Positions 24,281 through 60,119 are shown, numbered from the stretch's first letter. The stretch is 64,000 bases of DNA from an uncultured Methanosarcinales archaeon (GCA_964564925.1 CAZMBY010000001.1:37929-101928), one strand, 5' to 3'. Notes: generated by a model not told the origin, from the letters alone. A program made the numbers and translations.

Positions 24281-25021
24281 TCACTTAAACCCGGTTTCCT
24301 CTTTCTCCACCAAAGAAAACGGAGTCTGGTCGAATAGAACTTTCAGCCCGTCTTTGCCTATGGTGATAGGATAGACATCAAGGCTGTGGTCCTGGCCTCT
24401 GAGCTTTGCTACTGTGATAACTCGCTCAAAATAAGAGCCTTTCCTTATCCTTGAAAGCACGATAATTCCTTCAAAAACAAAATCCATCATATCAAATGTC
24501 AGCCTGTCAAAATCAGTGACAGACCTTTCAGAAGCCACCAAGAAAGTCACTCCGGCTTTTTTCATCTGCTGCATGAATATCAGGACCTGCCTTCTGAATT
24601 CCATCTTATTTCCATCAAACTTTGGATAAAGGTACTCAAAAAAAATTAGGGAGTCAAGCGCAACTCTCTTTATATTGTTCTTTTTTATTGCATCGAGCAA
24701 TCCCTTGATAGAAGAGATTCCTCCTTTTAATTCTGCTATCGGCTTTTGCACAAAAAATATCCTGCCTTTTTTTGTCATGGATTCAAGGTCCATTCCAAGG
24801 TTATTTGCGGTCTGATTCATCACCTCAAGGCTTTCCTCTGTTGAAATGAAAATGCCGTTCTCATTGCAGTCTTTTGCACCATAGTAGATAAACTGCAATG
24901 CGAGTATTGTCTTGCCTGTTCCGGGCGCCCCAGTCACTAAAATAGAAGAATTCTTCCTCAAGCCTCCTTTTAATACTTGATCTAGGCCCGAGACGCCTGT
25001 CTTTATCAGCTCTACTGCCAA
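24281..25021 (-). CDS. Single-domain KaiC/RecA-superfamily ATPase (FlaH/ArlH-like)
   Basis: 'GVSGLDQVLKGGLRKNSSILVTGAPGTGKTILALQFIYYGA' (Walker A) and Walker B-like 'RVALDSL'. Length is ~246 aa. Confidence 0.8.
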   Translation of the reverse strand: MAVELIKTGVSGLDQVLKGGLRKNSSILVTGAPGTGKTILALQFIYYGAKDCNENGIFISTEESLEVMNQTANNLGMDLESMTKKGRIFFVQKPIAELKGGISSIKGLLDAIKKNNIKRVALDSLIFFEYLYPKFDGNKMEFRRQVLIFMQQMKKAGVTFLVASERSVTDFDRLTFDMMDFVFEGIIVLSRIRKGSYFERVITVAKLRGQDHSLDVYPITIGKDGLKVLFDQTPFSLVEKEETGFK

Positions 25022-25073: not shown

Positions 25074-25703
25074 TTGCGGCTGCAATACGAAAAGTTTATA
25101 TTTAGAGTGATAGAGTTCATGCTTAAAAAAGTGGTGGAGATGCTCGAATTTAAAGAAACTTTTGATAATGAGGTTAAAAGCCTAAAGGACTACATACTTC
25201 TTATAACAGTTGATGCAAAAAATTACCAAAAAACAGCTATCGATATTGTCAGGTCCTTAATAAATGAGCAGAATGTCCCGGGCGTTTATGTGACATTGAA
25301 TAAGCCATACGAAATAGCCCAGAGATTGCTTTTGGGCAATGGAATAGACCCCAGGCTGATCATCTTTATAGATGCTGCAACCAGAGCAGAAATCCCAAAG
25401 AAAGTTGAAAATTGCCTGTACATCGGAAGCCCGGAAAAATTAAGTGACATGTCTGTTGCTATGGACCAGGCTGTCAAGGCATTAACTACTGAAGAAAAAT
25501 TCTTGATTTTTGACTCCTTAAACACATTGGCTATCTTTAACAAGCCTGCAACTGTGGCCCGCTTCATATATTTTTTGACGGCAAAAATGCGGGAATGGAG
25601 GGTAAAAGGGATAGTGATCACGCTTGAAAAGGAGACTGACCAAGTGATTCTTGACCAACTTACACAGTCATCTGATTTTAGGATTGACATAGGAGGTGAC
25701 TAA
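25074..25703 (+). CDS. Degenerate KaiC/RecA-like domain protein lacking Walker A (pseudo-ATPase)
   Basis: Same fold cues (..VYVTLNKPYEIAQRLL..IIFIDAAT..FLIFDSLNTLAIFNK..) but no GxxGxGKT. Divergently arranged with the KaiC-like gene. An alternative start is at the internal Met (MLKKVVEM). Confidence 0.45.
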   Translation: MRLQYEKFIFRVIEFMLKKVVEMLEFKETFDNEVKSLKDYILLITVDAKNYQKTAIDIVRSLINEQNVPGVYVTLNKPYEIAQRLLLGNGIDPRLIIFIDAATRAEIPKKVENCLYIGSPEKLSDMSVAMDQAVKALTTEEKFLIFDSLNTLAIFNKPATVARFIYFLTAKMREWRVKGIVITLEKETDQVILDQLTQSSDFRIDIGGD

Positions 25704-25705
25704 GA

Positions 25706-26113
25706 GTGGCGTATTTAGTCATAGTCAGCGTAACAACTGTGATATTCGGGATTGCATCGCTTTTGCTGATTTCAAAAGCAAGAAGCAGGCTAAGTGACGG
25801 GTCTATAAGGAGGTATTTGGATAATTTTGCCATATGCCTTGCATTTATGGTGATCTTTTCTGTATGGCAAAGTGCCAGAAATATTTTTGTTGACGGTGCA
25901 GCTGTCAGGGAGCATTCCCAGTATTTAACATACCCCGAGTACATATTTATCGTATTTGCCTATATAGCATTCATCATAGCATCATTCAGGGTAATCAAGA
26001 TAAGCCAGGAATTTGGATTCAAAGAAGATGGCAAGAGAATAGGCCATTTAATAGAAGAAAAAAGGGCTGTTAAAAAAATCGAAATCAAGAAGCGCATGGC
26101 TAAGAAAAAATAG
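25706..26113 (+). CDS. Small membrane protein (3 predicted TM helices) with basic C-terminus
   Basis: Hydrophobic stretches 'LVIVSVTTVIFGIASLLLI', 'LAFMVIFSVW' and 'IFIVFAYIAFIIASF'. Start codon overlaps the upstream gene. Confidence 0.45.
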   Translation: MAYLVIVSVTTVIFGIASLLLISKARSRLSDGSIRRYLDNFAICLAFMVIFSVWQSARNIFVDGAAVREHSQYLTYPEYIFIVFAYIAFIIASFRVIKISQEFGFKEDGKRIGHLIEEKRAVKKIEIKKRMAKKK

Positions 26114-26160: not shown

Positions 26161-26571
26161 ATGGCGCATAAATCCCAAATTAGCGTAGAATACATGCTTG
26201 TTATAGGTTTCGCAACGCTGATGTCAATACCTTTGCTCATAATCTATTATACATATTACGCCGAGACAAATGATAGTGTGGCAGCTGGCCAAGCATTGCA
26301 GATAGCTAGAAAGGTGATTGATGCATCTGAATCGGTGTATTATCTTGGAAAGCCATCGCAAACAACTTTAAAGCTGAATTTTCCAAGCAATATCTTTTCA
26401 ACAAACCTGTCAAATAAAGAGGTTGTCTTCAAAATCAATACAAGAAATGGGGTGACTGACATTGTGCAGGTCTCTTCTGTGAATATGAGCGGAAGCCTGC
26501 CTAAAAGCCAAGGTGTCCATATTCTCACACTAAAAGCTGAAGACGGTTATGTTCAAATAACATCAAACTAA
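26161..26571 (+). CDS. Pilin-like protein with class III (type IV pilin-like) N-terminal signal/TM
   Basis: 'MAHKSQISVEYMLVIGFATLMSIPLLIIYY': a short basic N-terminus, then Q and a hydrophobic helix. ~136 aa. Confidence 0.5.
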   Translation: MAHKSQISVEYMLVIGFATLMSIPLLIIYYTYYAETNDSVAAGQALQIARKVIDASESVYYLGKPSQTTLKLNFPSNIFSTNLSNKEVVFKINTRNGVTDIVQVSSVNMSGSLPKSQGVHILTLKAEDGYVQITSN

Positions 26572-26578: not shown

Positions 26579-26965
26579 GTGGCATTCATCAAGGCGCAAA
26601 TCAGTGCTGAATTTTCCATATTTATAGCTTTAGGCCTGCTGATTGCGATAGCATTCGAAATAGCTTCTTTAAATCAGTTAAATGCTTATCGGCTGCAGAA
26701 GGAAAATGAAGCGGTGAGGGATCTTGCGCTAAAGCTGCAAAAAGAGCTGCTTATAGCCGCTTCTGTCGAGGACGGCTACGTAAGGGTCTTTGAAGTGCCT
26801 GACAACCTTGATACAATAAACTATTCTATAACTACTCAAAACTCAACTCTTTTTGTCCAGTCAAAAAACGGTTTTCATTTTGTGGCAATCCCGAAAATAG
26901 TCGGCAATGTCACCAAAGGCACTAACCTGATAAACAAGACGGAGGGAGTGATTTATGTCAACTGA
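26579..26965 (+). CDS. Pilin-like protein with class III signal peptide (GTG start)
   Basis: 'M(V)AFIKAQISAEFSIFIALGLLIAIAF'. RBS 'aagaggtg' upstream; GTG initiation codon. Confidence 0.5.
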   Translation: MAFIKAQISAEFSIFIALGLLIAIAFEIASLNQLNAYRLQKENEAVRDLALKLQKELLIAASVEDGYVRVFEVPDNLDTINYSITTQNSTLFVQSKNGFHFVAIPKIVGNVTKGTNLINKTEGVIYVN

Positions 26966-27042: not shown

Positions 27043-28218
27043 ATGAATTCTAGGGCGCAAGCTTCTTACCTGGATTTTGCAATAGGCATGCTGCTTTTCA
27101 TAATCACATTAGTTGTTTACTACAGCTATACAAATAACATTCAGAAGGAAGAAAAAGATGTGCTAGATGTTATGCTTACCGAAGCTCAATCAATCTCCTC
27201 CTCATTGCTGCTGAGCGGATACCCGGAAGATTGGGACAACAATACTGTTGTGAGAATTGGAGTAGCCGATGATCAAAGGTTAAATGCAGGCAAGCTAAGG
27301 AGCTTCAAGAGATTAAATTATACCAGAACAAAACAAAGCTTTGGAACTCCTTATGAATACTTCGCCTATTTCGTCGGAAAAGATAATGCAGTACTTAACA
27401 TAAATGGAATTTGTGGTGTAGGCCACCCGCTTGTGAATTTGACTTATAAAACAAAAAGTGCATATTATTACCAGGACCCTTCAGATTCCTTCCTCAAGGA
27501 CTTCATGATCAATTCATTTAAGGCTGATTTGTATTTTGACGAAGACCCCGACGATACATATGATATAGATGGGCTGGCAAGCAATCTTACCAAATATGAC
27601 TTGGTTGTCATGGAACACCCAAAGCTGCAGCCATCTAAACTCGACCAGAATTACAGGGAGTTCAACAATTATACTGCAAGGGGTGGCAATTTAATAATAG
27701 GGGGCCTGTTAGTGGATGCTGCCTCTGGATTGGATCTTAATGGGATTACTTTTGACAAAAAAACCGGGCAGTCAGAGCCACAAAGAATAGCCGTTGTGAA
27801 CAACACTGATGTATTATTAGGCTTAGAAATAAATCAGACCATGACTTTCAACCAGTACTACTTTGTCTACAATGACACACCGCCAGTAATTGTTACCGAC
27901 CAAAGCGATGACGACTACAATCCAGTGCCTGCTGATAATTACGAGATATTAGCCGCATACAACAAAACACCAGAGGACGAGGCAATTGCAAAATGGCAGT
28001 ATGGCAATGGAACAGTGTATTTTTTCAGCGATTTCGACGTGATAAATTTTGACAGCAACTTCATAGAAATAATTGAAGATGTTGCTAAAGGCTTGGCTGG
28101 CGGCAACTGCATCTCTATAAATCTAACCGGGATTAATGTAAAGAACCTTGTGAAGACCGAGCGGTACTTGATATACGGGTCCGATATAGTCAAGATGGTG
28201 GTGTATGTATGGCAGTGA
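27043..28218 (+). CDS. Pilin-like N-terminus fused to a ~360-aa globular domain (minor pilin/pilus-associated protein)
   Basis: 'MNSRAQASYLDFAIGMLLFIITLVVYY' class III-like N-terminus. Overlaps the next gene by 10 nt. Confidence 0.5.
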   Translation: MNSRAQASYLDFAIGMLLFIITLVVYYSYTNNIQKEEKDVLDVMLTEAQSISSSLLLSGYPEDWDNNTVVRIGVADDQRLNAGKLRSFKRLNYTRTKQSFGTPYEYFAYFVGKDNAVLNINGICGVGHPLVNLTYKTKSAYYYQDPSDSFLKDFMINSFKADLYFDEDPDDTYDIDGLASNLTKYDLVVMEHPKLQPSKLDQNYREFNNYTARGGNLIIGGLLVDAASGLDLNGITFDKKTGQSEPQRIAVVNNTDVLLGLEINQTMTFNQYYFVYNDTPPVIVTDQSDDDYNPVPADNYEILAAYNKTPEDEAIAKWQYGNGTVYFFSDFDVINFDSNFIEIIEDVAKGLAGGNCISINLTGINVKNLVKTERYLIYGSDIVKMVVYVWQ

Positions 28219-31200
28219 AGAAAGGCATTTTTTTCACAATCGACAGCCTGCTTGCATCAGGAATTGTGATACTGACAGTTCTTCTTGTTTCAACATTTTA
28301 CATAAATGAGCATAAGAAAGTAAATGTAAGCTATGCCTCGCAGGATTTGGTCAGGGTTTTTTCCACTCTTAAAATAGGCGAGGTTGACAATGAGTATGTT
28401 GCGAGCCTTATTTCTTCAGGCGAGATTACAAATGTCAACTACACAATAATTGAGCAGATTGGCGACTTTTGGGCGCAAGACAGGATGGATTTGGCTCAAA
28501 AAATTGCGATTAATTTGACTCATGACTTGATCCCTGCAGCTTATGGGTTCAGCCTGCTTATTGACGAGGAGGAGATATATAGCAGAAATGTGCAATTAAG
28601 AAAAGCACTTGTTTCGTCAAGAAAGCTTGTGACAGGCATAACAAAGGCCCAGCCTACAGACGGATTCAGCGCAAGAGTGCTGCTCCAGGGAATCAAAAGC
28701 AAAAAAACAAATGCTTATGTTTACTTTGGCGGCTATGAGGGGGACGGAAATTTAACAAAAAAACTGACTCTTCCTAATGATGTAACTTCATTCGAAAGCG
28801 CGTATCTTGAAGTCGATGCTGGCGGAAATTTTACCTTGTATATTAATGGATTCGAATCTGGCGATTTCGTCAAGGGTTCAGCTGGCGGGGGGAGCCTATT
28901 GGCTGATAAGTGGAACTTAACAAGTAAAAATCTTACATTCTTCAAAGCAGGAGAAAACACTGTCACTTTAAATTTCACCTCAGACCAAAGTTATATTGCA
29001 GGAGGATTTCTTAAAGTGAAGTATGAAACTTCTTCGTTCAATGGGACTGAGGTGCCGGGATATGAAAAAAATTTGTTGCCGGGAATTGATGGGCTGATCA
29101 ATCTTTACTCTTCTGTTTATTTTCCAAGCAATTTAACTAACATGAGTGTGTACCTTCATTTTAAAAGCTCCAATCCTCTTTATTTGACGATAGGAAACAG
29201 CACAGTATTTGAGTATGGAGGATCTAACCAGATAGTGGAATTTACTCTGAATAGCAGTAATTTGTCAGAATCCATGAAAAGCAGCGCTTTGAGCTACGAT
29301 TTCCTAAAAGGAAAAACTGTCCCATTCAGGCTTGGATTGAGTAGCGGAATTCTTGCAGTTGGGGGGGCTGATTCCATACTGATCACAGACAGAACAAATA
29401 GCATGAGCAAATGCGATGTGCCTGCCAGCTGCTCGTTGTCAGGTTTATGCGACACAAACCCCAATGGGGGGTGCCACATGAGAAGAATTGATGCCGCTGC
29501 TGATAGTGACAGAAAATATATTGAAATTATGCTGAACGAAACAAAAAAAAACAATAAAGTCGGATTGGTGGGATTTGGCTTTGACACAAACCCTGTCTGT
29601 GACATTCGGGACTTTAGCCAAGACAACAGCTCATTAGCCAACTGGACAACATACTACAAGAGAAATGCCTGGTGCGGGAACACCTGCATCTCATGCGGCG
29701 TTTATTCCGCAACACAGATGTTGACAGAAAACGAGAAATTACATGGGTTTAATAAGATCACATTCAATGAGCCAAAGGAGTATAAGCTTGGAGTGAGCAA
29801 TTTCAATTCTGTCACAGTTTATGTCAATACAACATTCAATCCAAGCAATATTGTAAAAGCAAGGCTGTCAATTTTTGGCGATAAAGTTGATGTGGATAGC
29901 GGCCGCCAGGATTGCATATACTTCAATAATCGCTATATTGGGAGAATGTGTGAAACGAAAGGCGTAAAGCTAAGCTACCATACATGCCAGTATGTGATTA
30001 AGCCGGAATGGTTCAATACAGACGATTTGAGTAAAAACAACATAACAGTTACTGCCGGCACCAACTCAAACTGCTTTGGAGGGGCTGGAACAGAGGACAA
30101 TTGGAATTTAACTGATATAACCTTGATTGCATGGGAAGCTGATGAACCCCCAAGCATAATTTTCAATTCGACTTATGATAATGCCCAATATGCAGACGGC
30201 ATAGAGCTCAGCAAGACGCAAATAACAAATTCAACAACTTTCAACATAAGTAACGTGGTCTACATTGAAGAAAACAAAACTAAAATCAAGTCAGCCTGGT
30301 TAGAATTTGAGGCTGCAAATGGGAGCCTTGATAATTTCAATTGCGTGTACGTTAATGGGAATTTTATCGGAAGAGTTGATGCCCAGGAATGGAATTCGAC
30401 AAACAACAACAAATGGCAAAAGGTGATGTTTGATGTTCCAGATATTTTCCTGCGAAACGGCACAAATGAAGTAAACTTGACAAGCGGCACGTCTCAAAAC
30501 TGCAAGGGTTCAACTGGTAATACCCATGACAAGTGGCGCTTTAGGAATTTGAGCCTGACAGTTTTATGGTCAGATGCCAATTCAAAATATAACAGGCACA
30601 AGTCAATGCTCGTCATGAGCGATGGCATAGCAACCGAGGTGCTAGACAGAAGAAACGCCCAATATGCTGAAGCAAGGGATGAAGTTGTTGACAAGGCTTG
30701 CGAAGCACATAACCTCTTCAATATATCAATTTATACTGTAGCAATGGGTGATGCCGCTGACGCTCCAACACAGATGATGCAGGACGCTGCATGCTGTGAT
30801 AATTGCTCACATTATTATCGAGCAGAATCGCTTGATGAATTGCTAAATGTCTATGGGGAGATTGCAGCACTGTTGTCGAATGTAGCTTTTGAAGAAGGCT
30901 CTCAAACAGCGTTCTCCGGCTCCTTTTTTGAAAGGACGTCGTTGTTCCCGGACTCGTTCATCGATTTCAATTACACCTTGCCGGATTTTGAATTCAATAG
31001 GCTGCCTTTGGTTTTCGAAACAAACAGGTTCGGCAACGACATATCTTCCGGGCCATTAACAATATACCAAAACACCACATTTTCTGAAGGCAAGGTAACT
31101 TCTTATTCCAGTTCAATGTGGACTGACAAAGTGCTTGTGAACGGGACTTTAACATTCGATCTGGGAATATATGGGAATTACTCATCAAATGATCCAACAA

Positions 31201-31694
31201 TGACGAAGGTCTATAGAAACATCGGGGATCCGTTCACAGTGAATATACCTGCCAGTATGATTGATGAAGGAATTTATAATATTACTGTAAGCACAGGGAC
31301 AAACTCCTCAAACCCAACAAATGGCTCAGCGGATAACATGGTAATATACACGTTGCTCTTAAACACATTCACAGACTACAGCCCGGTTGTTGCAGAATCC
31401 GATGGCTGCTCCTGGACTGTGGAATTTCAGGATGGCACGTCATCATTAATCGACATTCCATTGGGCTATAACGGGCCCGATACCTGCAGCTTTACTGCAG
31501 CATTGAAAAAATACAGCTCGAATGATTCTGTGGAAACTGTGGTATTTCAGCTGTTCAAGAACCTCGACATAGACAAGGACGGCAGGCTTGACGTGAACAT
31601 TGACGCAAGCAGTCTGGAGGTCAACACCCTGACCATTTCAAAAGTGCCGTCTTTATGGGGACCTGCTGTTGTTGAAATCAGCGTATGGGAGTGA
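28209..31694 (+). CDS. 1161-aa pilin-like N-terminus protein containing a von Willebrand factor A (VWA) domain; candidate pilus-tip adhesin
   Basis: N-terminal 'MAVKKGIFFTIDSLLASGIVILTVLLV'. VWA/MIDAS-like motifs 'ILITDRTNSMSKCD' (DxTxS), 'MLVMSDGIATEV' and 'IYTVAMGDAAD' are separated by a large insertion. Many Cys and N-x-S/T sequons. Confidence 0.65.
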   Translation: MAVKKGIFFTIDSLLASGIVILTVLLVSTFYINEHKKVNVSYASQDLVRVFSTLKIGEVDNEYVASLISSGEITNVNYTIIEQIGDFWAQDRMDLAQKIAINLTHDLIPAAYGFSLLIDEEEIYSRNVQLRKALVSSRKLVTGITKAQPTDGFSARVLLQGIKSKKTNAYVYFGGYEGDGNLTKKLTLPNDVTSFESAYLEVDAGGNFTLYINGFESGDFVKGSAGGGSLLADKWNLTSKNLTFFKAGENTVTLNFTSDQSYIAGGFLKVKYETSSFNGTEVPGYEKNLLPGIDGLINLYSSVYFPSNLTNMSVYLHFKSSNPLYLTIGNSTVFEYGGSNQIVEFTLNSSNLSESMKSSALSYDFLKGKTVPFRLGLSSGILAVGGADSILITDRTNSMSKCDVPASCSLSGLCDTNPNGGCHMRRIDAAADSDRKYIEIMLNETKKNNKVGLVGFGFDTNPVCDIRDFSQDNSSLANWTTYYKRNAWCGNTCISCGVYSATQMLTENEKLHGFNKITFNEPKEYKLGVSNFNSVTVYVNTTFNPSNIVKARLSIFGDKVDVDSGRQDCIYFNNRYIGRMCETKGVKLSYHTCQYVIKPEWFNTDDLSKNNITVTAGTNSNCFGGAGTEDNWNLTDITLIAWEADEPPSIIFNSTYDNAQYADGIELSKTQITNSTTFNISNVVYIEENKTKIKSAWLEFEAANGSLDNFNCVYVNGNFIGRVDAQEWNSTNNNKWQKVMFDVPDIFLRNGTNEVNLTSGTSQNCKGSTGNTHDKWRFRNLSLTVLWSDANSKYNRHKSMLVMSDGIATEVLDRRNAQYAEARDEVVDKACEAHNLFNISIYTVAMGDAADAPTQMMQDAACCDNCSHYYRAESLDELLNVYGEIAALLSNVAFEEGSQTAFSGSFFERTSLFPDSFIDFNYTLPDFEFNRLPLVFETNRFGNDISSGPLTIYQNTTFSEGKVTSYSSSMWTDKVLVNGTLTFDLGIYGNYSSNDPTMTKVYRNIGDPFTVNIPASMIDEGIYNITVSTGTNSSNPTNGSADNMVIYTLLLNTFTDYSPVVAESDGCSWTVEFQDGTSSLIDIPLGYNGPDTCSFTAALKKYSSNDSVETVVFQLFKNLDIDKDGRLDVNIDASSLEVNTLTISKVPSLWGPAVVEISVWE

Positions 31695-31719: not shown

Positions 31720-32646
31720 ATGAACAAGAAAGCAATAATCTATACTGCTGCCGCAATAGCGCTGACCATTGTAATTGTTTTGACATACAGCTCTTATACT
31801 TCCTTCAGGTTAAATGAGAGAATGAGCCCTATACAGACAAGGATCGAGACAGTCAATTTCTTCATCAAGGATGTTGAAAACGATTTGGGAAAGGGAATTT
31901 TCATTGCCGGATTCAGGACGTTGCTCAGTCTCAACCAATTCATCGCCACAAATGGGACATTTATTGATGACGTAAATGAAAGGTTCAAAGAAGCCTTTCT
32001 CAACGGCACTATCAAAAATATTTCGTTCAGCTTAATGCAGGACTCCACTTTTACCGATTGGGCTGACAAGATTTCAGCTCAGGCAGATAAGGTTGATGTG
32101 ACATTTAATTATTCAATAAATGATATAAAATTGAACCAGAGTAGTCCGTGGTCTGTAGAGATTGGAGTCAATATAACTTTGGAGATAAGTGACAAGCGAA
32201 ATACAAGCTATTGGGTTAGGGACAGATTCCTGATTACAAAAATAAGCATAATAGACTTTGAAGATCCGCTTTATATAGTACATAGCGGTGGAAGAGTTAC
32301 AAATACCATAAGAATTTCAAATATCACAAAGTTTGTGGTTAACGGGGATGTTGAAAACCTTCTTGTGCATACTAATGAGTCATTTTATATTGTCCACAAC
32401 GACAGCCCAAGCTTCTTGATGAGATTGGAAGGCGAAATAGGGAATTCAAGTGCCGGCATAGAAAGCCTTGTTAACTTAGATGAATTTATCGGACAAGGCC
32501 TGCCAGTCAAGGACAGGAGCATAGTAGACTCCATATATTTTGGAACACAAAGTACGGTTAATTACAGGATTAACAAAACACCCGAATGGTTCAAAATTGA
32601 CCAGGACCATCTTGATATTTACCAGGTGACAAATATCACCATCTAA
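31720..32646 (+). CDS. Pilin-like N-terminus protein (308 aa), pilus-associated
   Basis: 'MNKKAIIYTAAAIALTIVIVLTY' followed by a beta-rich domain. Confidence 0.5.
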   Translation: MNKKAIIYTAAAIALTIVIVLTYSSYTSFRLNERMSPIQTRIETVNFFIKDVENDLGKGIFIAGFRTLLSLNQFIATNGTFIDDVNERFKEAFLNGTIKNISFSLMQDSTFTDWADKISAQADKVDVTFNYSINDIKLNQSSPWSVEIGVNITLEISDKRNTSYWVRDRFLITKISIIDFEDPLYIVHSGGRVTNTIRISNITKFVVNGDVENLLVHTNESFYIVHNDSPSFLMRLEGEIGNSSAGIESLVNLDEFIGQGLPVKDRSIVDSIYFGTQSTVNYRINKTPEWFKIDQDHLDIYQVTNITI

Positions 32647-32689: not shown

Positions 32690-33835
32690 ATGGAAATTGA
32701 AAGCAGCATAATAGAGACCGGTGTTGACAAGCTGGTAAGTTTGGTTAAAGTAAGAGGCAAAATAGCCCTGTCAGATGCTGCGAAAGAACTTGGAGTCAGC
32801 ACAACTGTAGTCCAGGAATGGGTCGATTTTCTCGAAGATGAGGGGATTATAAGCGTTGAGTACAAACTAACAAAGCCCTTCCTTGTAGAAAGGAAACTTA
32901 CTAAAAAAGAGGTTGATGCGAAGGCAAAGGAGTTTATAGGCAAAAAAGATGTTTTTGTTAGGAAAGCTGAAGTGAACCTTAGCTTTCTTGAAAAACAGGC
33001 AGACGAGCTAAGGAAAGTGAAAGAGGAATTTGAGAAATTAAAAAAAGACCTTGGCTTGGATCTTGGAACTCTAAAAGATGAGTTAAATGAGATTGAAAGG
33101 TATCAGCAGTTAAAGGAGGAAGTGCAAAAACAGGCGGAAGAGCAAAAGAAAGAGGCCCAATTGAGGATAGTCCAACTGGCAAAAGAGATTGAAAGAGAGC
33201 AAAAGAAATATCAGGAGTTTGTATCTGAAGTCAATATCGAAAGAGAACAATTGCTCAAAGAAAAGAAAGAAGCAGTTTCCATAGAGGAAAGCGAAGAAGC
33301 ATTAAACGCCAGATTGATTGAACTGAAAGACATGGTGGGCAAGCTGGAAAAAAAGCTTTCAGATGAAGGTGTCGCAGTAAAAAATTCAGAAGCGCATATA
33401 CAGAGGCTAAACCTCCTTATGGAAGAGGTAAAGCAACGCGTTGCAGAGGAAAAGGGGATAGTCGAGCCTTTAATAGAAAAAAATAAGGAGCAGGAACGAA
33501 AAATACTTGACCTTCAGGATCAAGTCCTGAAGAAGATAAGTGAAAATGAAAAAAGAGCGTCAAATGCCAAGGATCTGACAAAGAGATTTAAAGTTATTTT
33601 TGAGAAAAGAGTGGGTGCATTGGATTTGATTTACAAAGTGAACAAAGACCGTGATGAATTGGAAAAAAACCTTATGGAATTGATAAGGAAAGCCAAGTCT
33701 TTTCAGCTGACCATGAAAAAAGGAGATGTAAGCAAGGAAATGATTGAGCTGGAGAAAAAATTCAGCGAAGTTAACCAAAAAAAGAGCATTTTTGAAGAGG
33801 AGCTTAAGAAGCTAACATCATTTTTTAGGATGTAA
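32690..33835 (+). CDS. Winged-helix plus long coiled-coil protein (pilus/archaellum accessory, FlaC/D/E-like?)
   Basis: N-terminal 'KIALSDAAKELGVSTTVVQEWVDFLEDEGIISVEY' wHTH, then ~300 aa of heptad-rich K/E sequence. Confidence 0.5.
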   Translation: MEIESSIIETGVDKLVSLVKVRGKIALSDAAKELGVSTTVVQEWVDFLEDEGIISVEYKLTKPFLVERKLTKKEVDAKAKEFIGKKDVFVRKAEVNLSFLEKQADELRKVKEEFEKLKKDLGLDLGTLKDELNEIERYQQLKEEVQKQAEEQKKEAQLRIVQLAKEIEREQKKYQEFVSEVNIEREQLLKEKKEAVSIEESEEALNARLIELKDMVGKLEKKLSDEGVAVKNSEAHIQRLNLLMEEVKQRVAEEKGIVEPLIEKNKEQERKILDLQDQVLKKISENEKRASNAKDLTKRFKVIFEKRVGALDLIYKVNKDRDELEKNLMELIRKAKSFQLTMKKGDVSKEMIELEKKFSEVNQKKSIFEEELKKLTSFFRM

Positions 33836-33861: not shown

Positions 33862-35541
33862 TTGTTTAAAAAATTCAGCTTGAATAGAAGTAAAGAGGAC
33901 AAAAAGATAACAACGGCTAAAGAGGAGCATATAAATGAGGAAAGCAAACCTCATGTAAAGGGTCAAGCAGTAAAATTAACGGGCCTGCCTCCAATTGAAA
34001 TAAAGCCGAAGGCTATTGAAAAAAAGCATGCGGATAAACAAGCACTTCATGCCAAGAAAGAAGATGCCAACTTGCTTGCAACATACAACTTTGTATCGGA
34101 CAACATACCCATCATCATCAATATTTACAAAAAAAAAGGCGAATTTGTCCCCATATATGAAGTTTCAATATCAAGCATAAGCAAAAATACTGAGATTATT
34201 CTTGAAAAGATCAGGGAAGAATTGACCACCCAAGTGAGTTTAGGCATGGTCGACATTCTTGCAACAAAGGACACAGGGATCGTTGAGCAGAGGTTCATGG
34301 AGGCAATAACCCTGTTGGTCAACAAGCATTTCCCAGATGCTGACGACCAAACGGTGAATTTCCTCAAATCTTACGTGATACAAAGGAGCCTTGGGCTGGG
34401 CAGCGTGGAAATTCTCATGGATGACAACAACCTTGAGGAGATAGCCATAAATAACGCAGACGAGCCGGTATGGGTCTATCACATCAAATTCGGCTGGCTT
34501 AAGACAAGTGTTATGCTGCAAAGTGAGGACCAGATAAGGCATTACGCCACGATGATTGGAAGAAGGGTAGGGAGGCAGATAACAATACTTGAGCCTTTGA
34601 TGGATGCCCATCTCAGGGGGGGCGATAGGGTGAATGCAACGCTTGAGCCGATTTCTGTCCAAGGAAATACAATTACTTTAAGAAAATTCGCAGCCAAGCC
34701 CTGGACGATTACTGACTTCATAAAAAGCAATGCAATCTCATCAGAAGCTGCTGCGCTAATATGGCTGGGGGTGCAATTCGAACTCTCAGCATTAATATCC
34801 GGCGGAACAGCGACTGGAAAAACCTCTATGCTGAATGTTGTCGCAAATTTCTTTCCCCCTAACCAAAGGATCATAAGCATAGAGGATACACGGGAGATAC
34901 AGCTCCCAAAATTCCTGCATTGGCTCCCAATGGTAACAAGGCTTCCAAATCCGGAAGGCAAAGGCGAGGTTTCAATGCTTGACTTGCTGGTTAACTCTTT
35001 AAGGATGAGGCCTGACAGGATTATAGTTGGGGAAATAAGAAGGAAAAGGGAAGCAGAGGTGCTTTTTGAAGCCATCCATACTGGCCATTCAGTTTATGCA
35101 ACTGTCCACGCAAATGACACTCAGGAGACGATAACCAGGCTGTCAAACCCGCCAATAGAGATTCCAAAAACAATGCTGCCTGCTATATCGATGATTGTTG
35201 TGCAGTATAGAAACAGAAGAACAGGCGTAAGAAAAACATTCCAAATAGCTGAAATTTTACCTGATTCCGAGCCTAATGTGCTTTTGCAATTGGATATAAG
35301 GCAAGGTGTTTTAAAAAAAATTGCAGAATCAAAAGCTTTGCTAGGCACAATTGAAATGTTCACAGGCTTTACAAGAAACGAATTGAAGGGCTCTTTGCAG
35401 GAGAAAGAGGATATTTTGAAATGGCTTGCAAAGAACAGCATTAACACTGTGGACACTGTAGGAAGAGTAATGGCTGAGTATTACACAAATAAGGACAATC
35501 TAATGAAATACGTCAAAAGCAACAGGATATTGGGCGACTAA
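33862..35541 (+). CDS. FlaI/ArlI-TadA-VirB11 family secretion ATPase (type IV pilus/archaellum assembly ATPase)
   Basis: Walker A 'ISGGTATGKTSMLN', Asp box 'IISIEDTREIQ', Walker B 'RPDRIIVGEIR', His box 'HTGHSVYATVHAN'. Confidence 0.85.
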   Translation: MFKKFSLNRSKEDKKITTAKEEHINEESKPHVKGQAVKLTGLPPIEIKPKAIEKKHADKQALHAKKEDANLLATYNFVSDNIPIIINIYKKKGEFVPIYEVSISSISKNTEIILEKIREELTTQVSLGMVDILATKDTGIVEQRFMEAITLLVNKHFPDADDQTVNFLKSYVIQRSLGLGSVEILMDDNNLEEIAINNADEPVWVYHIKFGWLKTSVMLQSEDQIRHYATMIGRRVGRQITILEPLMDAHLRGGDRVNATLEPISVQGNTITLRKFAAKPWTITDFIKSNAISSEAAALIWLGVQFELSALISGGTATGKTSMLNVVANFFPPNQRIISIEDTREIQLPKFLHWLPMVTRLPNPEGKGEVSMLDLLVNSLRMRPDRIIVGEIRRKREAEVLFEAIHTGHSVYATVHANDTQETITRLSNPPIEIPKTMLPAISMIVVQYRNRRTGVRKTFQIAEILPDSEPNVLLQLDIRQGVLKKIAESKALLGTIEMFTGFTRNELKGSLQEKEDILKWLAKNSINTVDTVGRVMAEYYTNKDNLMKYVKSNRILGD

Positions 35542-35542: not shown

Positions 35543-36370
35543 ATGAGGACTGACATATTCAAGACTCTGTTCCAGCGGGTTTCAAAGTCATTTCCAAACC
35601 TTAGGCTGAAGCTGAAGCAGGCTGGCATGGATGACAAGCCAGATTTGTTTATCAAGAAAACTTTTGTCACGTCATTCTATATGACAACAGGGGTCGTTGT
35701 TTCGTTATTTCTGGTGCTCGCTAAATTGGACGTCCTAAAGGGAGTGATATTCCTGATTATACCTGTTATTTTTGTTGTGATGCTTTTTTATCTTATGAGG
35801 CTCCCGGATGCAAAAATATCAAGGAAAGAAAGGGAGATAAGCAAGGAAATTGTCTTTGCAGGAAGGTTCATCATAATAGAGCTGGAGTCCGGCGTGCCTC
35901 TCTATAATGCAATGGTCAATGTTTCAAAAAACTATGAGATTATAGGGAAATACTTCAAGGAGATAACAGACAAAGTCGACCTTGGAACAAGCATTGAGGA
36001 TGCATTGAATGAAGCGGTAGAGTTCATCCCCTCAAATGACTTCAGAAAAATACTTTGGCAAATCATAAACTCGATAAGGACAGGCTCCAATGTTGCAAAG
36101 GCGCTTTACTCTGTGATGGAGCAAATCACAAAAGACCAGATAACAGAGGTCAACAGGTACGGTAAAAAGCTGAACCCGTTAGCGATGTTCTATATGATAG
36201 TGGCAGTTATTTTGCCGTCCTTGGGAATGACAATGCTGATAATACTGTCTTCTTTCATACAATTTGAGCTAAGCCTCACCATTTTGATTGCGCTTGCAGG
36301 CTTTTTGGGATTTGTGCAGTTCATGTTCATATCATTGGTTAAGTTCTCAAGGCCTGCCATTGAGTTTTAA
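35543..36370 (+). CDS. FlaJ/TadB-like polytopic membrane platform protein (first of two separate genes)
   Basis: T2SSF-like domain 'EIVFAGRFIIIELESGVPLYNAMVNVS...IEDALNEAV...VAKALYSVMEQI' flanked by TM helices. Starts 2 nt after the ATPase stop. Confidence 0.7.
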   Translation: MRTDIFKTLFQRVSKSFPNLRLKLKQAGMDDKPDLFIKKTFVTSFYMTTGVVVSLFLVLAKLDVLKGVIFLIIPVIFVVMLFYLMRLPDAKISRKEREISKEIVFAGRFIIIELESGVPLYNAMVNVSKNYEIIGKYFKEITDKVDLGTSIEDALNEAVEFIPSNDFRKILWQIINSIRTGSNVAKALYSVMEQITKDQITEVNRYGKKLNPLAMFYMIVAVILPSLGMTMLIILSSFIQFELSLTILIALAGFLGFVQFMFISLVKFSRPAIEF

Positions 36371-36416
36371 CTTGCATGCGAGTTTTTCTCGCGTGCCACA
36401 GCTTCCATTAAGCACA

Positions 36417-37517
36417 ATGTTCAACCTCAAAAACATATTGAAGAAAAAAAGCGGTGCAGATAAGCAAGAAACTAGAATTGAGTTTTTCAAGAAAAAATTC
36501 AAGAAGGCCCAGGAAAAAAGGACATTATCAGCCCAAAGGAAGCAAAGAATCAGGGAGTATATAGAAAGAGCCGGTCTTGAAGCGAATCCACAAAAGCTTT
36601 CGAAGATTTTTTTTAATACTGCCATTATAATAAACCTTGCAATATCTGCCTATCTTATCTATTACTTCTCTGTCAATTATGGGATTGAGTGGAGCGCGAT
36701 TGTAACTTCTATGCTGGTCCTATGGATCTTTATCTTTATATTCCTGGTTTTTGCATTGTGGATTATATTCTACATAGCAGTGGATTTGAAGATTTTCAGG
36801 AGAAGGGTCGATTTGGAGGATGTCTTACCTGATTTCCTGCAGTTGACTGCCGCAAACATAAATGCAGGCATGACCATTGACAGGGCATTATGGTATTCTG
36901 TCAGGCCAAGATTTGGAGTGCTTGCCAAAGAGATAGAGATGGTTGCCAAGGAAACAATGAGCGGGGTCGATTTGAAGGTTGCATTGGACAAATTTGCTGC
37001 AAGGTATGACTCCGCAATTCTCAAGAGGTCTATCAGCATGATCAATGAAGGAATAGAAGCTGGCGGGCAAATAGGAGATTTGCTTAACAGGATAGCTGTC
37101 AATATCCAGGAGCAGAAATCAATGATGAATGAGATGTCTGCAAACGTCACAACTTATGTGATATTCATAACATTTGCAACAATAGCTGCCGCGCCCTTCC
37201 TGTTCGCCATGTCAGGAGTCTTAATAGGCGTGGTAAAGACGATAGGCACTTCATTGGGCTCAGCGACAACTGCGGCTGCAAGCGCCGGCGTGCCAATAAT
37301 GTTCCAAGGCACAGGCATATCTGAGTCAGATTTTAAGATTTTTTCCGTTGTATCGCTGATAATAACTTCATCATTCTCTGCCATGATGGTATCCACAATA
37401 AAAAAAGGGAACATAAAATCAGGGATAAAATACATACCCATCTTCATAATTGTAACTTTATCGATATATTTCATTGTGCAGGGAGTTTCACAGAAATTGT
37501 TTGTATTTTTTGTTTAA
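36417..37517 (+). CDS. FlaJ/TadC-like polytopic membrane platform protein (second gene)
   Basis: 'DFLQLTAANINAGMTIDRALWYSVRPRFGVLAKEIEMVAKETMSGVDLKVALDKFAARYDSAILKRSISMINEGIEAGGQIGDLLNRIA' T2SSF-like domain plus TM helices. The ORF track starts at 36288. That extension overlaps the upstream gene and a GCATGCGAG…CTCGC hairpin, so the Met at 36417 is preferred. Confidence 0.65.
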   Translation: MFNLKNILKKKSGADKQETRIEFFKKKFKKAQEKRTLSAQRKQRIREYIERAGLEANPQKLSKIFFNTAIIINLAISAYLIYYFSVNYGIEWSAIVTSMLVLWIFIFIFLVFALWIIFYIAVDLKIFRRRVDLEDVLPDFLQLTAANINAGMTIDRALWYSVRPRFGVLAKEIEMVAKETMSGVDLKVALDKFAARYDSAILKRSISMINEGIEAGGQIGDLLNRIAVNIQEQKSMMNEMSANVTTYVIFITFATIAAAPFLFAMSGVLIGVVKTIGTSLGSATTAAASAGVPIMFQGTGISESDFKIFSVVSLIITSSFSAMMVSTIKKGNIKSGIKYIPIFIIVTLSIYFIVQGVSQKLFVFFV

Positions 37518-37640: not shown

Positions 37641-37680
37641 ATATATAAAATAAAAATGGAATTTAAATGAGGTGAAGTTA
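37641..37680 (+). promoter_or_regulatory. Putative promoter (TATA 'atatataaaa') and SD-like 'aggtga' for the pilin gene pair
   Basis: The TATA-like box is at 37641-37650, ~35 nt upstream of ATG 37681. 'gaggtgaag' sits 5-9 nt upstream of that ATG. Confidence 0.3.
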
Positions 37681-38133
37681 ATGAGTGATTCTCCTTTGTT
37701 CAAGCCGAAAAAATCCCAAGCTGCCATGGAATTCTTGATGACCTATGGCTGGGCTATACTTGTTGTTCTTGCTGCTATTGCTGCTCTTGCCTATTTTGGC
37801 GTTTTAAGCCCGGAAAAATTTCTTCCGGAAAAGTGCCTTGTAGAGACAGGGTTCACCTGCATAAGCTCAAAGGTAGAGTCTAGCCAATCCACTATCGTGC
37901 TTCAAAACAGCTACGGGAGGAGTGTTGTCATTGACAATATCCAGATTGGCAGCTGTTCCACTGCATTCACAACAACTCTGACAAGCGAGGATCAAAACAA
38001 TTTTGTGCTGACTGGCTGCAGCAACGGCGATGTAAAGGAAGTATTCAAAGGTGAGGTGATTATTAAGTACACGGAAAAGAACACCAATCTTTCAAAAACT
38101 GCATACGGCCAAATAAACACTAAAATAGAATAA
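37681..38133 (+). CDS. Archaeal type IV pilin (class III signal peptide, major pilin candidate)
   Basis: 'MSDSPLFKPKKSQ^AAMEFLMTYGWAILVVLAAIAALAYFG' is a canonical archaeal prepilin processing site (K-S-Q/AA) plus hydrophobic helix, then a ~110-aa beta domain. The ORF track begins at an upstream GTG (37672). Confidence 0.7.
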   Translation: MSDSPLFKPKKSQAAMEFLMTYGWAILVVLAAIAALAYFGVLSPEKFLPEKCLVETGFTCISSKVESSQSTIVLQNSYGRSVVIDNIQIGSCSTAFTTTLTSEDQNNFVLTGCSNGDVKEVFKGEVIIKYTEKNTNLSKTAYGQINTKIE

Positions 38134-38183: not shown

Positions 38184-38618
38184 ATGAACCGAAAATCCCA
38201 AGCTGCACTTGAATTTATTATGACTTATGGCTGGGCCATTCTTGTTGTTTTAGTTGCCATAGGCGCCTTGGCATATTTTGGGGTATTAAGCCCTGACAGG
38301 TTCTTGCCGTCAAAATGTGTTCTTCAATCGGGAATAGCATGTGTTGACCACAAAGCTACCTCAACATCGCTTACTGTAGTTGCTCAGAACTCTTTTGGGT
38401 ATGACTTAACGATAACTGATGTCAAAGCCCAGCAGTGCACAGCACAAACTGGATTGACAACATCATTTCCCAATGGGGGGCAGGCAACACTCGTCATGGT
38501 GTGTACAAATTCCGGAAGCAAGTACAATGGTCAGTTTAATATAACCTACAATACACCATCTGATGTTGGCGGCATTTCCCATACTAATATTGGGCAAGTG
38601 ACAACAAGAATTGAGTGA
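38184..38618 (+). CDS. Archaeal type IV pilin paralog
   Basis: 'MNRKSQ^AALEFIMTYGWAILVVLVAIGALAYFG'. ~45% identical to the upstream pilin; RBS 'gaggtga' at 38169-38175. Confidence 0.7.
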   Translation: MNRKSQAALEFIMTYGWAILVVLVAIGALAYFGVLSPDRFLPSKCVLQSGIACVDHKATSTSLTVVAQNSFGYDLTITDVKAQQCTAQTGLTTSFPNGGQATLVMVCTNSGSKYNGQFNITYNTPSDVGGISHTNIGQVTTRIE

Positions 38619-40399: not shown

Positions 40400-43300
40400 T
40401 TAATATTCCCCTTTTCTCTTTTGCCAAGCAAAGTAGCCAATACCTGCCGCTACAACAATTAACAAGACTACAATCCATCCCATTGATGTCCTGCTTAATC
40501 CTCCCTCTGGTGCAACTGCTGTTGGTGTGGATGGTTGTGCTGTTGGAGGCTGCTCTGTTGGTGTAGTTGGAGGCTGCTCTGTTGGCGGCTGTGTAGTTGG
40601 AGGCTGCTCTGTTGGAGCTGCTTCTTTAGTTCCTATGGCAAATGTGCTTGTTCCTGGTGATGTTGATTGATAGCTGACATAATCTGCATCGCTTCCTGAC
40701 TTGGTTGTTGGCAATGGGTTCCACTGGCCATCGCTGTACCTGTACAGCACTATATCATCTTCAGAAGCCCCATTGCTTACCAGCCATGATTTTGGCACTC
40801 TGAAGTTAATTGTTGTGCTTGACGTGTCTAAATCTGCAAAATTGCTCTTTGTTATCTGCAGGTATTGGAATACTTTTGCTGCTGCAGCTGTTGAATATGG
40901 ATTTGCTTTCAGGCTATCCACACTTAATGATGGGTTTGAAACAGCATTAGCAATTCCGATTATTACTGCAGTAAAGGCTATATTCTGGTTGTTGATAGTT
41001 AAAGTTGCTGTTGAGCCTGCAGCTAACTGGTCCCATACTCTACCGACATTTGCTTCTACATTGCTTACCACTCCTCCTCCGCCTCCTCCCCCACCGCCGC
41101 TACTGCTTGAGGAGCTTGAGCTTGAAGAAGAAGCTGCTGAGCTTGTACTAAAGTTAAATGTTCCGTTCTTAGCGCAGTTTCCATTGTTGTCGCATATTGT
41201 TACGTTGAAATGGTATGTTGTAGAGGCAGTTAGTCCAGTTATTTCTACATCCTGTGAGGCATTAAAATCAGTTTGCATGGCAGCAACAGTATTAACTATT
41301 GCCCCTACTGAAGTGCCATAGTACACTGTTGCATTTACCGATTCATTGATGCCGCTTATTGTAATTGTAGCTGTTGTTGTGCCGCCGCTTGCTGAAACTG
41401 CAGTTAGATTCGGCACGTTTGGAGCTGCAGTGTCTGAAACGTTGAACTGCCACAAGTAATTGTTAACGTTGCTATCCGAGTCAGTAACCGTGAAGGTAAT
41501 ATTGAATAGGTTGTCTCCACCAGCATTATTTATTGTATTATTAAACCTCTCGGTTGAGCCAAGGCATATTCCGCTGCTCAAAGTCATTGTTTTGTTGGAA
41601 ACAGACGAGTTTATTGAGTATTTGCAACTTATGGCGTCTGCTGTTACTGATATGTTTGGAACAAACATGCCTACTAACTGGTCTAAAGCTGGTGTTGTGA
41701 CATTTACCAATGGGATTGCTGAATTGTTCACAAACCCTAATCCACTGAAATGGGGCAAATATACCCTTATCGAGCTGTTGTCTGTGTAATTCCAGCAGGC
41801 TGAAGCAGTAAAGCTTGGACTAAATCCTGCTGCGCATTCAGACAAGTTACTCTCTGCGGTGACATCATCAATGTCCGGGAAATACCATAATTCGAATTTG
41901 CCACCAATCTCGTATTGGCTCGCATTGTTAATCCTGTAATTTATTATTCCATAATATGAATTATTGTTGGGGAGGAAATCGTGAATTGTCTTATCAAACC
42001 ATATAAGCTCCTGAACTTCTGAAGTAAAGTTATTGTTTATTTGAGTCATTGTAAGCGAATTATTCATCAGGAAAGTAAAGTTCCTGTCCCAGTTTGCAGC
42101 GGAACCGTTAAATACAACAGTAACATTGTCTATTCTCTGCGAGCCGTTCATGTCCATAAACAGTTTCCAGGTCGAGTCATTAACAACCCTAAAACTGTTG
42201 CTTCCATTATTTAATGTTTCACCTGAAGCATCAGTCAAGTTGACAAAAGATATATTAGTATTGGTAACAAGCAACGATGTATTCACATAGTCTGAAAAGT
42301 TCAGAGGACCTGTTATTGTGAAAGTCAATTGGGTTGCATTTACTACATTACCTAAAGAATCATTCGCTGTCAGCTTTAGCGTATGGGTTCCGGGCGTGAA
42401 GAAGAACCACGTGCTGTTGCCATAAGTGTTATTGACACCTTGGCCGCCTGTGCCTCCTGATGTGCTTGTGTTTATTGCAATCGGTGCAGATACATTGTCA
42501 AGGTAATAACCTACAAAGGATATAGAACTGTCTTGGTCAATTGCTGAGAAATTTATTGATACGTTGCTGTTCGTAAAGGATTGTCCATTTGTTGGTGCGT
42601 AAACATAAATTGAAGGAGCCACATTATCAACAAGGAATCCAAATGTTGTTGCATTTGAGTTTCCTGCTGTGTCTGTTACAGTTACTTTTAACGACCTATT
42701 GCCCGATGTTGTTGGGCATGTTGATGCATTGAATGGGAATACCACAGTGTTGTTTTGGAAATAAACTGTTGTGCTTGAATCACAACTCGAAACATAAGAT
42801 AGGTTAGCGACACTTGCTCCTGATCCAGCAATTCCAAGCCCATAAAACCCAAGTCCCTTAACATTGTCTCTTAATATGCTTGAAGTCAGGTTTGTCTCAT
42901 TTACAGCAGCGGTAGTAATAAGATTATTGGCAGTTACGTTGCTAAAGTTTAATGCTGGAACGCCTCCGCTTTGAACCGTGAAAGTGTGATTTCTGGCTTC
43001 AATATTTCCCCATGTATCTCTTGTTTGTACTAAGATGAAGTGTGACCCATTTACCAATGTGCATGATGGATCGTTTGTTGGTGTGAATGAGCTATTTCTA
43101 AAGGCATCTGCGTTGCCATCAGAAGCGCTTGCGGTTGTAAATCTCTTGAACTTGTTGCAGCCAACTAACACCCCATCAAGGCTGACGTTGATTTCTGCCA
43201 TGCCGCTTGTTTCAATTACAGACCAGCTTACCAATGGCAATGTGGCTGTTGAACCTGTTAGATTAGAGCCGTTTACTGAAACTGTCCCATTGATTGTTAT

Positions 43301-55910: not shown

Positions 55911-55914
55911 GTTT

Positions 55915-60107: not shown

Positions 60108-60119
60108 GCGGCATCTCCT

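Follow-up and report, generated by a model that had tools for sequence, protein, structure and literature searches.

Gene content of the pilus locus

We analyzed a 64,000-nucleotide stretch of DNA (hereafter, the window) from a record labelled uncultured Methanosarcinales archaeon (GCA_964564925.1, CAZMBY010000001.1:37929-101928), centering on one long gene of a type IV pilus locus, hereafter D. This gene is the fourth of five co-directional cassette genes (A-E), each of whose products has, at its start, a short basic leader and then a hydrophobic helix (Table 1). An earlier note on the same DNA, made by a model from the sequence, had described D as a 1161-aa candidate pilus-tip adhesin with a pilin-type N-terminal helix, a domain of the von Willebrand factor A (VWA) type, and Cys-rich lectin-like regions. 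The open reading frame (ORF) is as described there, and is the longest of the region. Its ATG overlaps the stop codon of gene C by 10 nt, suggesting translational coupling, and an alternative in-frame GTG lies 6 bases downstream, at 28215, from which the product would begin MKKGIFFT..., the commonest N-terminus among homologues.

Judged from its gene content, this is an Epd/Tad-like archaeal type IV pilus locus. Two single-domain platform genes, as found here next to the filament assembly ATPase gene, are common to archaeal Epd-like systems and bacterial Tad pili, and Denise et al. inferred an archaeal, Epd-like ancestor for Tad pili (PMC6668835). A 2026 survey of archaeal type IV filaments placed loci of this kind ('system 1') in methanogens and DPANN.

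Table 1 Genes of the pilus locus, regions of protein D, and glycosylation genes, with positions in the window (slash in a motif, boundary before position +1)
Feature	Position	Strand	Remarks
KaiC-like ATPase	24281-25021	-	Conserved upstream gene; divergently transcribed
DUF7504/KaiC-like protein	25074-25703	+	Conserved upstream gene; adjoins the KaiC-like ATPase gene
Small membrane protein	25706-26113		Conserved upstream gene; upstream of the cassette
Cassette protein A, minor-pilin-like	26161-26571	+	136 aa; class III motif HKS/QISVEY (+1 Q, +5 E)
Cassette protein B, minor-pilin-like	26579-26965	+	128 aa; motif IKA/QISAEF; homologous to A
Cassette protein C, pilin-like	27043-28218	+	391 aa; SRA/QASYLDF (+1 Q, +6 D); rich in N-glycosylation sequons
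Cassette protein D, pilin-like VWA protein (target gene)	28209-31694	+	1161 aa; ATG start; has homologues
D residues 1-33, basic leader MAVKKG and hydrophobic helix IFFTIDSLLASGIVILTVLLVSTFY	28209-28307	+	Putative class III cleavage site after G6; D12 invariant
D residues 34-164, conserved helical and small beta-sheet domain	28308-28700	+	No significant match to solved folds
D residues 165-384, two predicted beta-sandwich domains	28701-29360	+	First one distantly related to the insert module
D residues 385-505, N-terminal half of VWA	29361-29723	+	beta1 with D394-R-T396-N-S398, Cys-rich arm 402-425, alpha1, beta2, beta3, alpha2, MIDAS T492, alpha3
D residues 506-788, insertion within VWA	29724-30572	+	Two homologous beta-sandwich modules, ~511-645 and ~646-790
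D residues 789-892, C-terminal half of VWA	30573-30884	+	beta4 ending S804-D805-G806 (MIDAS Asp), alpha4, beta5 (SIYTVAMG), alpha5, beta6, alpha6
D residues 893-1161, conserved all-beta C-terminal region	30885-31694	+	Ends in near-invariant KVPSLWGPA..E..VWE
Cassette protein E	31720-32646	+	308 aa; NKKA/IIYTAAAIAL; N-terminal type as in D, without acidic residue
Winged helix-turn-helix and long coiled-coil protein	32690-33835	+	381 aa; winged helix-turn-helix N-terminal; conserved between cassette and ATPase gene
T2SSE type IV filament assembly ATPase, FlaI/TadA-like	33862-35541	+	Pfam/NCBIfam
Two platform genes	35543-36370; 36288-37517	+	Single T2SSF each; split is an Epd/Tad-like hallmark (PMC6668835)
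Two candidate major pilins	37672-38133; 38184-38618	+	153 and 144 aa; KKS/QAAMEF and RKS/QAALEF, then (L/I)MTYGWAILVV
AglB/STT3 oligosaccharyltransferase	49312-52701	+	1129 aa; E 1.8e-35; 18 kb downstream of D
GT2 glycosyltransferase	52702-53370	+	Directly after AglB/STT3

A VWA domain split by an insertion

D carries a genuine VWA domain that is split in two and has a complete predicted metal ion-dependent adhesion site (MIDAS). In Pfam, NCBIfam, and PDB sequence searches the intact protein returned no significant match, and its hits to AbiH, FokI, and a PTS IIB chain were rejected as chance noise. Pfam misses the domain because a 283-residue insertion (506-788) separates its halves: when residues 380-505 and 789-895 were spliced in silico, the product matched PF00092 VWA with E 1.4e-5 and 25.8 bits, above the gathering cutoff of 23.8 bits. 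The boundaries of the insertion are mirrored in the family itself, given that the short forms in an alignment of 54 family members are without exactly query residues 506-788. Searched individually, 20 of the 21 short-form and 21 of the 33 long-form homologues matched VWA families (PF00092/PF13519). The earlier note had recognized the VWA hallmark motifs and missed the split.

Comparison with solved structures and structure prediction agree with this result. The family profile aligned over both halves with VWA proteins of known structure, namely Mfa5 of P. gingivalis (6tnj, E 6.4e-6) and 4rck (E 2.3e-5), and the latter alignment pairs DxSxS, T, and D with D394/T396/S398, T492, and D805 of D. 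A model of D built on the alignment with AlphaFold2 (AF2; mean predicted local distance difference test score [pLDDT] 80.3, predicted template modeling score [pTM] 0.54) places b1 at 387-394, a1 at 426-441, b2 at 450-456, b3 at 465-470, a2 at 473-482, and a3 at 494-510 in the first half; after an all-beta insert (515-787) follow b4 (797-804), a4 (819-837), b5 (840-846), a5 (854-862), b6 (869-872), and a6 (875-890). This order of elements, b1-a1-b2-b3-a2-a3-[insert]-b4-a4-b5-a5-b6-a6, is the canonical one for VWA. The motifs that had been singled out from the translation fall at positions that are conserved in VWA domains: DRTNS at the end of beta1, supplying D394, T396, and S398; MSDG (M803-S804-D805-G806) at the end of beta4; and AMGDAAD at the end of beta5, with the invariant G847.

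The MIDAS of D is complete (D394-x-T396-x-S398, T492, D805), as are the corresponding residues (D-x-S/T-x-S, T, D) in 111 of 117 homologues, with DRTxS as the first motif in long forms and DVSGS in short forms. The VWA domain of D would bind a ligand in a metal-dependent manner.

The insertion consists of two modules that are homologous to each other (hhalign probability 99.6%, E 2.7e-24). For the second module, hhalign also indicated a distant relationship with the beta-sandwich at 165-278 and with region 905-1055. Across the family the two halves of VWA and the regions at either end of the protein are constant in length, and only the insertion site varies, measuring 7, ~166, 283, 393, 490, or 605 residues, that is, 0 to ~5 modules. 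By standard VWA topology, this site in the a3-b4 loop should lie on the face opposite the MIDAS, and the Cys-rich arm, which is longer in short forms, should project from the b1-a1 loop on the MIDAS face.

Conservation of the family and its gene order

A search of a collection of 5.8 billion proteins recovered 178 relatives in addition to D. Full-length relatives measure 1105-1173 aa and are 35-66% identical; proteins of ~880-930 aa are more numerous, and those of ~1340-1480 aa are few. Relatives with a taxon name come from Candidatus Woesearchaeota or Nanoarchaeia metagenome-assembled genomes (MAGs). The records of many short forms already bear the label 'VWA domain-containing protein' and precomputed PF00092/PF13519 matches. 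The long forms are mostly nameless, and any source name they carry is 'hypothetical protein', showing how an insertion of domains within a domain hides VWA from standard profile searches.

A scan of one genome per GTDB species revealed 267 stretches that encode relatives. The best 72 of these 267 loci are all of DPANN type, from Woesearchaeota, Nanoarchaeia/Nanoarchaeota, 'Nanobdellati', one Aenigmatarchaeota, and MAGs labelled unclassified archaeon, uncultured archaeon, or 'uncultured Methanosarcinales'. Many third-party MAG records of the last kind (loci L006, L007, L010-L013, and others) carry a DPANN-type pilus cassette in the same synteny, and their organism label is probably wrong. As for the window itself, the order of its flanking genes (Lon-like, PLD, PfkB, AdoHcy hydrolase, KaiC) is that of a Woesearchaeota MAG; from this synteny and from the homologues, we infer that the DNA comes from a Woesearchaeota-type DPANN archaeon, which would be a tiny cell of symbiotic type.

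Gene synteny was compared among the 59 related loci with enough flanking DNA (50 for the ATPase). At least two of A, B, and C stand directly upstream of the D homologue in 48 of the 59, all three in 45, and E stands downstream in 54; a T2SSE ATPase gene lies within 10 kb in 35 of 50. The cassette arrangement thus recurs in dozens of Woesearchaeota/Nanoarchaeia genomes, so that proteins similar to D, which the earlier note had suggested looking for as VWA-pilin fusions, do exist in other archaeal pilus loci.

A class III-like N-terminus

The N-terminus of D is extremely conserved, consisting of K-K-G, then IFFTID and a hydrophobic helix of ~22-25 residues (about residues 7-33). The pattern [KRN][KRN][AGS] followed by (I/V/Q)(F/Y)(F/L)(T/S) was found in 53 of the 53 aligned homologues whose N-terminus is complete (that of P0120 is truncated). 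Within it, [KR][KR][AG] and the succeeding (I/V)FFT(I/L)D are near-invariant, and the leader ahead of the basic residues varies in length. In archaea, the class III rule calls for G, A, or S at -1, a charged residue at -2, and a processing site before the hydrophobic (H) domain (PMC4371748), and the D sequence, MAVKK-G with the helix next, agrees with all of these. The Sec-type signal peptides found elsewhere in the window look quite different.

The pilins of the locus follow a stricter pattern. Glutamine occupies +1 in A, B, C, and both major pilins, and glutamate +5 in all of these except C, which has Asp at +6; +1 Gln with +5 Glu is characteristic of EppA substrates. Profiles of the A and B N-termini match the major pilin at 92-94% probability, and matches among this group, A with B included, reach 92-97% (hhalign). 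Taken together, these comparisons lead us to conclude that D has a class III-like N-terminus, with predicted processing, rather than a Sec signal peptide, and that D and E represent a second N-terminal class within the locus. The pilin-type helix of the earlier description therefore stands as far as the class III rule and the exclusion of a Sec signal peptide go; a +1 Gln, a +5 Glu, a pilin profile, and a pilin fold were not found with it.

Signatures of an extracellular glycoprotein

D contains 39 N-x-S/T sequons, compared to 18 expected from its composition, and 20 cysteines, nearly all of which are conserved among the long forms. Its cassette neighbors have 2.2-4.2 sequons per 100 aa and cytoplasmic proteins 0.5-0.7. 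The sequon excess, the conserved cysteines, and the AglB/STT3 oligosaccharyltransferase gene in the window together point to an extracellular glycoprotein, which is probably N-glycosylated and disulfide-bonded. The pairing of AglB/STT3 with a GT2 glycosyltransferase is itself consistent with the heavy sequon load of the pilus cassette proteins.

The beta-sandwich parts of D were compared to known folds. A whole-protein Foldseek search was dominated by proteins with multiple beta-sandwiches and did not cleanly isolate the VWA domain: it returned reelin repeats, Cry toxin, PNGase F, BcsB, and the sugar-binding domains of beta-galactosidase, along with ITIH1, which contains a VWA domain, and PitA, a tip pilin of another pilus. 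The insert-module profile had no significant Pfam or PDB match, with galactose-binding-like, carbohydrate-binding module (CBM)-like, and DUF7383 hits below threshold, and at the sequence level it significantly matched no lectin or CBM family. Of the Cys-rich lectin-like regions proposed before, the conserved cysteines and predicted beta-sandwich folds can be retained, and 'lectin-like' itself is a guess at the level of the fold for the parts outside VWA.

Proposed role and alternative explanations

We propose, with moderate confidence, that D is a modular extracellular adhesin of an Epd/Tad-like pilus that is processed and reaches the pilus tip. The short basic leader (M-K-K-G) would be cut off by a class III signal peptidase whose gene lies in another part of the genome, after which the hydrophobic helix would dock with the helices of A, B, C, and E to form a priming complex on the ATPase/platform machine. 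Major pilins polymerizing beneath this complex would bring it to the tip, where the VWA domain would present its MIDAS metal site amid ~6 beta-sandwich modules, two of them in the alpha3-beta4 loop, and the tip assembly would bind a ligand presented by a partner cell or a surface. Reach or specificity may be tuned by how many modules are inserted (0 to ~5 between species). Leader cleavage and incorporation into the filament are predictions of this scheme. The tip position is proposed because of the analogy with S. sanguinis PilB, C. crescentus CpaL/TadG, and the PilY1/minor-pilin complexes; of the tip-adhesin claim made earlier, VWA with its MIDAS and the conserved type IV pilus locus are what the window and its relatives bear out, and the location comes by analogy.

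Several results weigh against this proposal. Where the locus pilins have their conserved Gln and Glu, D has Ile at +1 and Asp at +6, and EppA, the Epd-type peptidase of M. maripaludis, requires +1 Gln (PMC4371748). In hhalign comparisons, the D N-terminal profile has a probability of <1% with those of A, B, C, and the major pilin and resembles only that of E, weakly (67% over 13 residues). No Class_IIIsignal (PF04021), TadE/Tad (PF07811/PF13400), or N_methyl match was obtained for D (Pfam, E<=0.1), and the TadE/Tad families are also absent from the matches of the 54 homologues (Pfam, E<=0.01). Residues 1-168 modelled alone, with moderate confidence (pLDDT 71.5), form helices at 5-35, 40-53, 62-70, 80-89, and 93-107 and short strands over 114-158, and a Foldseek search of this model against the PDB found no significant structural neighbor, among pilins or otherwise (best E 3.1). 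The ORFs scanned in the 64-kb window include no peptidase A24 (prepilin peptidase) gene. The seven-transmembrane ORF at 53826-54494 (minus strand) was considered for this function and rejected, having no Pfam match and, on reading, no GxGD motif. The MIDAS is not retained throughout either: P0002, P0004, and P0007, three of the closest relatives of D, lost S398 (to K/N/G) and D805 (to S) together, implying that metal-dependent binding is not universally required and has apparently been given up in this one sub-lineage. Lastly, some distant family members (L004, L038, and L039) are not adjacent to pilus genes.

The N-terminal results would also suit an unprocessed, N-terminally membrane-anchored pilus accessory protein, whose helix serves as a signal-anchor and which stays at the cell surface near the pilus base, either anchoring or guiding the filament through the envelope or acting as a cell-surface adhesin co-regulated with the pilus. 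Such a protein could be likened to ArlF/ArlG of the archaellum, which are unprocessed. The missing +1 Gln/+5 Glu, the missing profile similarity to A, B, C, and the major pilin, and the missing pilin fold after the helix all fit with it, the length of the hydrophobic stretch would allow it to cross a membrane, and the original hypothesis for TadG, cited by Makarova 2016, was that of a membrane anchor. A simple anchor, however, would hardly account for the invariant basic-basic-(G/A) immediately ahead of the helix or for the Asp at +6, likewise invariant, and the five-gene arrangement mirrors bacterial minor-pilin operons. Furthermore, preparations of pilus fibres were found to contain TadG, and a tip position was modelled for its orthologue CpaL (PMC11870444). 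On balance, we regard a permanently anchored D as unlikely, although it is the strongest of the alternatives to a pilus-borne adhesin.

It is improbable that D is a pilus-independent surface adhesin, or an S-layer-associated glycoprotein, that merely neighbors pilus genes. Large surface proteins are numerous in DPANN genomes, and this window alone has several; the distant homologues located away from pilus genes are also in line with such a role. Against this, the order A-B-C-D-E is kept in most loci even though the sequences are only 33-66% identical, the start of D overlaps the stop of C in the manner of translationally coupled genes, and the N-termini of D and of cassette protein E are of one type. 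Least probable is an intracellular or regulatory role, of the kind known for ArnB or the MoxR-associated vWA proteins that have been connected with archaeal type IV pilus loci: Makarova 2016 does count vWA proteins among the putative regulators of archaeal type IV pili, but the hydrophobic helix, twofold sequon excess, 20 conserved Cys, and multiple beta-sandwiches of D point outside the cell, family searches of the window ORFs turned up neither a MoxR/GvpN ATPase nor an FHA partner for D in the locus, and NCBIfam gave no significant similarity to ArnB-type families, so that this idea is effectively refuted.

If the proposal of a pilus-borne adhesin is correct, it bears on the DPANN archaea, the Woesearchaeota among them, a widespread and mostly uncultured group that is thought to depend on cell contact and whose means of attachment are largely unknown. 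D is a plausible candidate for an attachment protein of these uncultured archaea, and its family, which nearly always lies within this pilus cassette, offers a concrete, conserved set of candidates.

Other features of the window

The KaiC-like ATPase and DUF7504/KaiC-like protein genes stand directly upstream of the cassette in many related loci, and may regulate the pilus, a role that Makarova 2016 proposed in other archaeal type IV pili. The second platform gene was called mechanically from a TTG start, by which it overlaps the first platform gene by 83 nt and begins with ~80 residues that look non-native; its translation has an in-frame Met ~80 codons downstream, and 36531 was adopted as the start for the tblastn query.

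Several large ORFs lie outside the pilus locus. The giant one at 615-12230 (+), 3871 aa, has no Pfam match over its first ~1460 residues and right-handed beta-helix/NosD matches and a weak bMG3 match in its C-terminal third, and is probably a huge surface protein of the kind typical of DPANN genomes. Two further ORFs, at 40400-44647 (-, 1415 aa) and 45567-47966 (-, 799 aa), are large and probably surface-exposed, with weak Ig-like, FixG_C, or NPCBM-associated matches only. The genes clustered at 54627-63560 (-) encode secreted PD40/Tricorn-like beta-propellers of 427, 359, and 1146 aa and a Big_7 Ig-domain protein; in locus L002, a similar PD40/Tricorn protein is encoded just upstream of the pilin cassette. 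Two long ORFs of the window, 49312-52701 (+, 1129 aa) and 60120-63560 (minus strand, 1146 aa), were considered as paralogues of D and rejected, since they show no BLASTP similarity to it and are AglB/STT3 and a PD40 beta-propeller, respectively.

Comparison with known systems

VWA-bearing adhesins are known from several bacterial pili, and the comparators named in the earlier note were PilC/PilY1-like proteins and the tip proteins of sortase pili. PilY1 is, with TadG/CpaL and S. sanguinis PilB, among the closest analogues, and the latter two are better comparators than the sortase-pilus proteins. PilY1 of P. aeruginosa and M. xanthus and PilC of Neisseria are large adhesins like D, and PilY1 shares with it a VWA domain (N-terminal in PilY1) and genes encoded with minor pilins; PilY1 primes assembly and ends at the tip. 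Both have a Sec signal peptide and a C-terminal beta-propeller and are not known to have a pilin helix. In D, by comparison, the hydrophobic helix is present, the C-terminal 270 residues are predicted to form beta-sandwiches, and Pfam gave no PilC/PilY1 family match. PilY1/PilC are linked to the minor pilins through beta-strand complementation (PMC13533445).

Mfa5 of P. gingivalis type V fimbriae (6tnj), which is the best solved-structure sequence match of the D family, and the sortase-pilus tip pilins RrgA, PitA (7w6b), and SpaC resemble D in having VWA with a MIDAS and inserted arms and in being displayed on a pilus for adhesion. They differ in their unrelated assembly, by sortase transpeptidation or strand exchange, and in having no class III N-terminus.

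Among archaeal systems, Makarova 2016 proposed the DUF2341/arCOG03508 'PilY-like' proteins of clade 1 systems as tip adhesins of type IV pili. Like D, these are large secreted proteins encoded in Epd-like archaeal pilus loci; unlike D, the published archaeal candidates have DUF2341, Ig-like, or beta-helix domains and no VWA, and D has no DUF2341 match in Pfam. A VWA domain tied to archaeal type IV filament biology is otherwise found in ArnB, which is cytoplasmic and regulatory, and for archaeal type IV pili Makarova 2016 mentions only cytoplasmic vWA regulators of the ArnB type. There is no mention of vWA in the 2026 survey of archaeal type IV filaments, and in open-access text we came across no account of a pilin-like protein with a VWA domain from an archaeal pilus locus. 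The statement that VWA tip adhesins are not established for archaeal type IV pili accordingly holds for the literature we found, with the addition that large tip adhesins had already been proposed for them in the form of the DUF2341 proteins.

The bimodular pilin PilB of S. sanguinis has a vWA module, is a proven adhesin, and was proposed to be tip-exposed (PMC8179133). As in D, a class III-type N-terminus is fused to VWA with a MIDAS of functional type and flanking 'arms', and the gene lies in a pilus locus. PilB, however, is a 50 kDa protein whose pilin fold is canonical and which has the N-methylation motif of bacteria (IPR012902), whereas D has many more domains, Ile at +5, no N_methyl match, and no pilin fold found after its helix. 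Archaea go unmentioned in the published modular-pilin survey, for which the bacterial IPR012902 motif served as the definition (PMC8179133).

A close architectural parallel is CpaL/TadG, large proteins resembling minor pilins in the Tad (type IVc) pili of bacteria; TadG is from A. actinomycetemcomitans. C. crescentus CpaL has a predicted pilin module and a vWA domain with a DxTxS MIDAS that is split by two tandem beta-rich domains, and it was modelled at the pilus tip with two minor pilins (PMC11870444). D has in common with it the N-terminal leader and hydrophobic pilin-type helix, a single VWA with a D-x-T-x-S...T...D MIDAS interrupted by two tandem beta-rich domains, and its genetic surroundings, with smaller minor pilins encoded alongside and a single TadA-like ATPase gene and two platform genes of one domain each in the locus. 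Beyond the VWA core, no sequence relationship was detectable, and D is without a Pfam TadE/Tad match. The insertion points also differ: in CpaL, the insertion (204-383, with T470 and D515 after it) separates the DxTxS segment from the remainder of the domain, whereas in D it follows the MIDAS Thr and alpha3 and precedes beta4. Because of this difference, the two architectures are better called analogous than taken to show common descent of the whole protein. In addition, D is about twice the size of CpaL/TadG, with extra beta-sandwiches on both sides, has an acidic residue at +6, and belongs to an archaeal system with no secretin or outer membrane.

Given the relationship between Tad and Epd systems, a VWA tip subunit in archaeal pili would be unsurprising in principle, and D may be an archaeal counterpart of TadG/CpaL, which would bear on the proposed archaeal origin of Tad pili. 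A bolder version, which we offer as speculation and hold to be doubtful, is that the D family is the archaeal homologue, possibly the ancestor, of bacterial TadG/CpaL: the VWA tip subunit would already have been part of the Epd-like machine that Bacteria received from Archaea, and in Woesearchaeota-type DPANN it would act as a pilus-tip adhesin recognizing a host or partner cell, with the 0 to ~5 inserted modules as a determinant of specificity or reach. Taken by analogy, D would function like TadG/CpaL or PilB while failing the sequence-defined family tests of both, and its family would extend the 'modular pilin' principle, an adhesion domain on a pilin-type helix, from Bacteria to Archaea.

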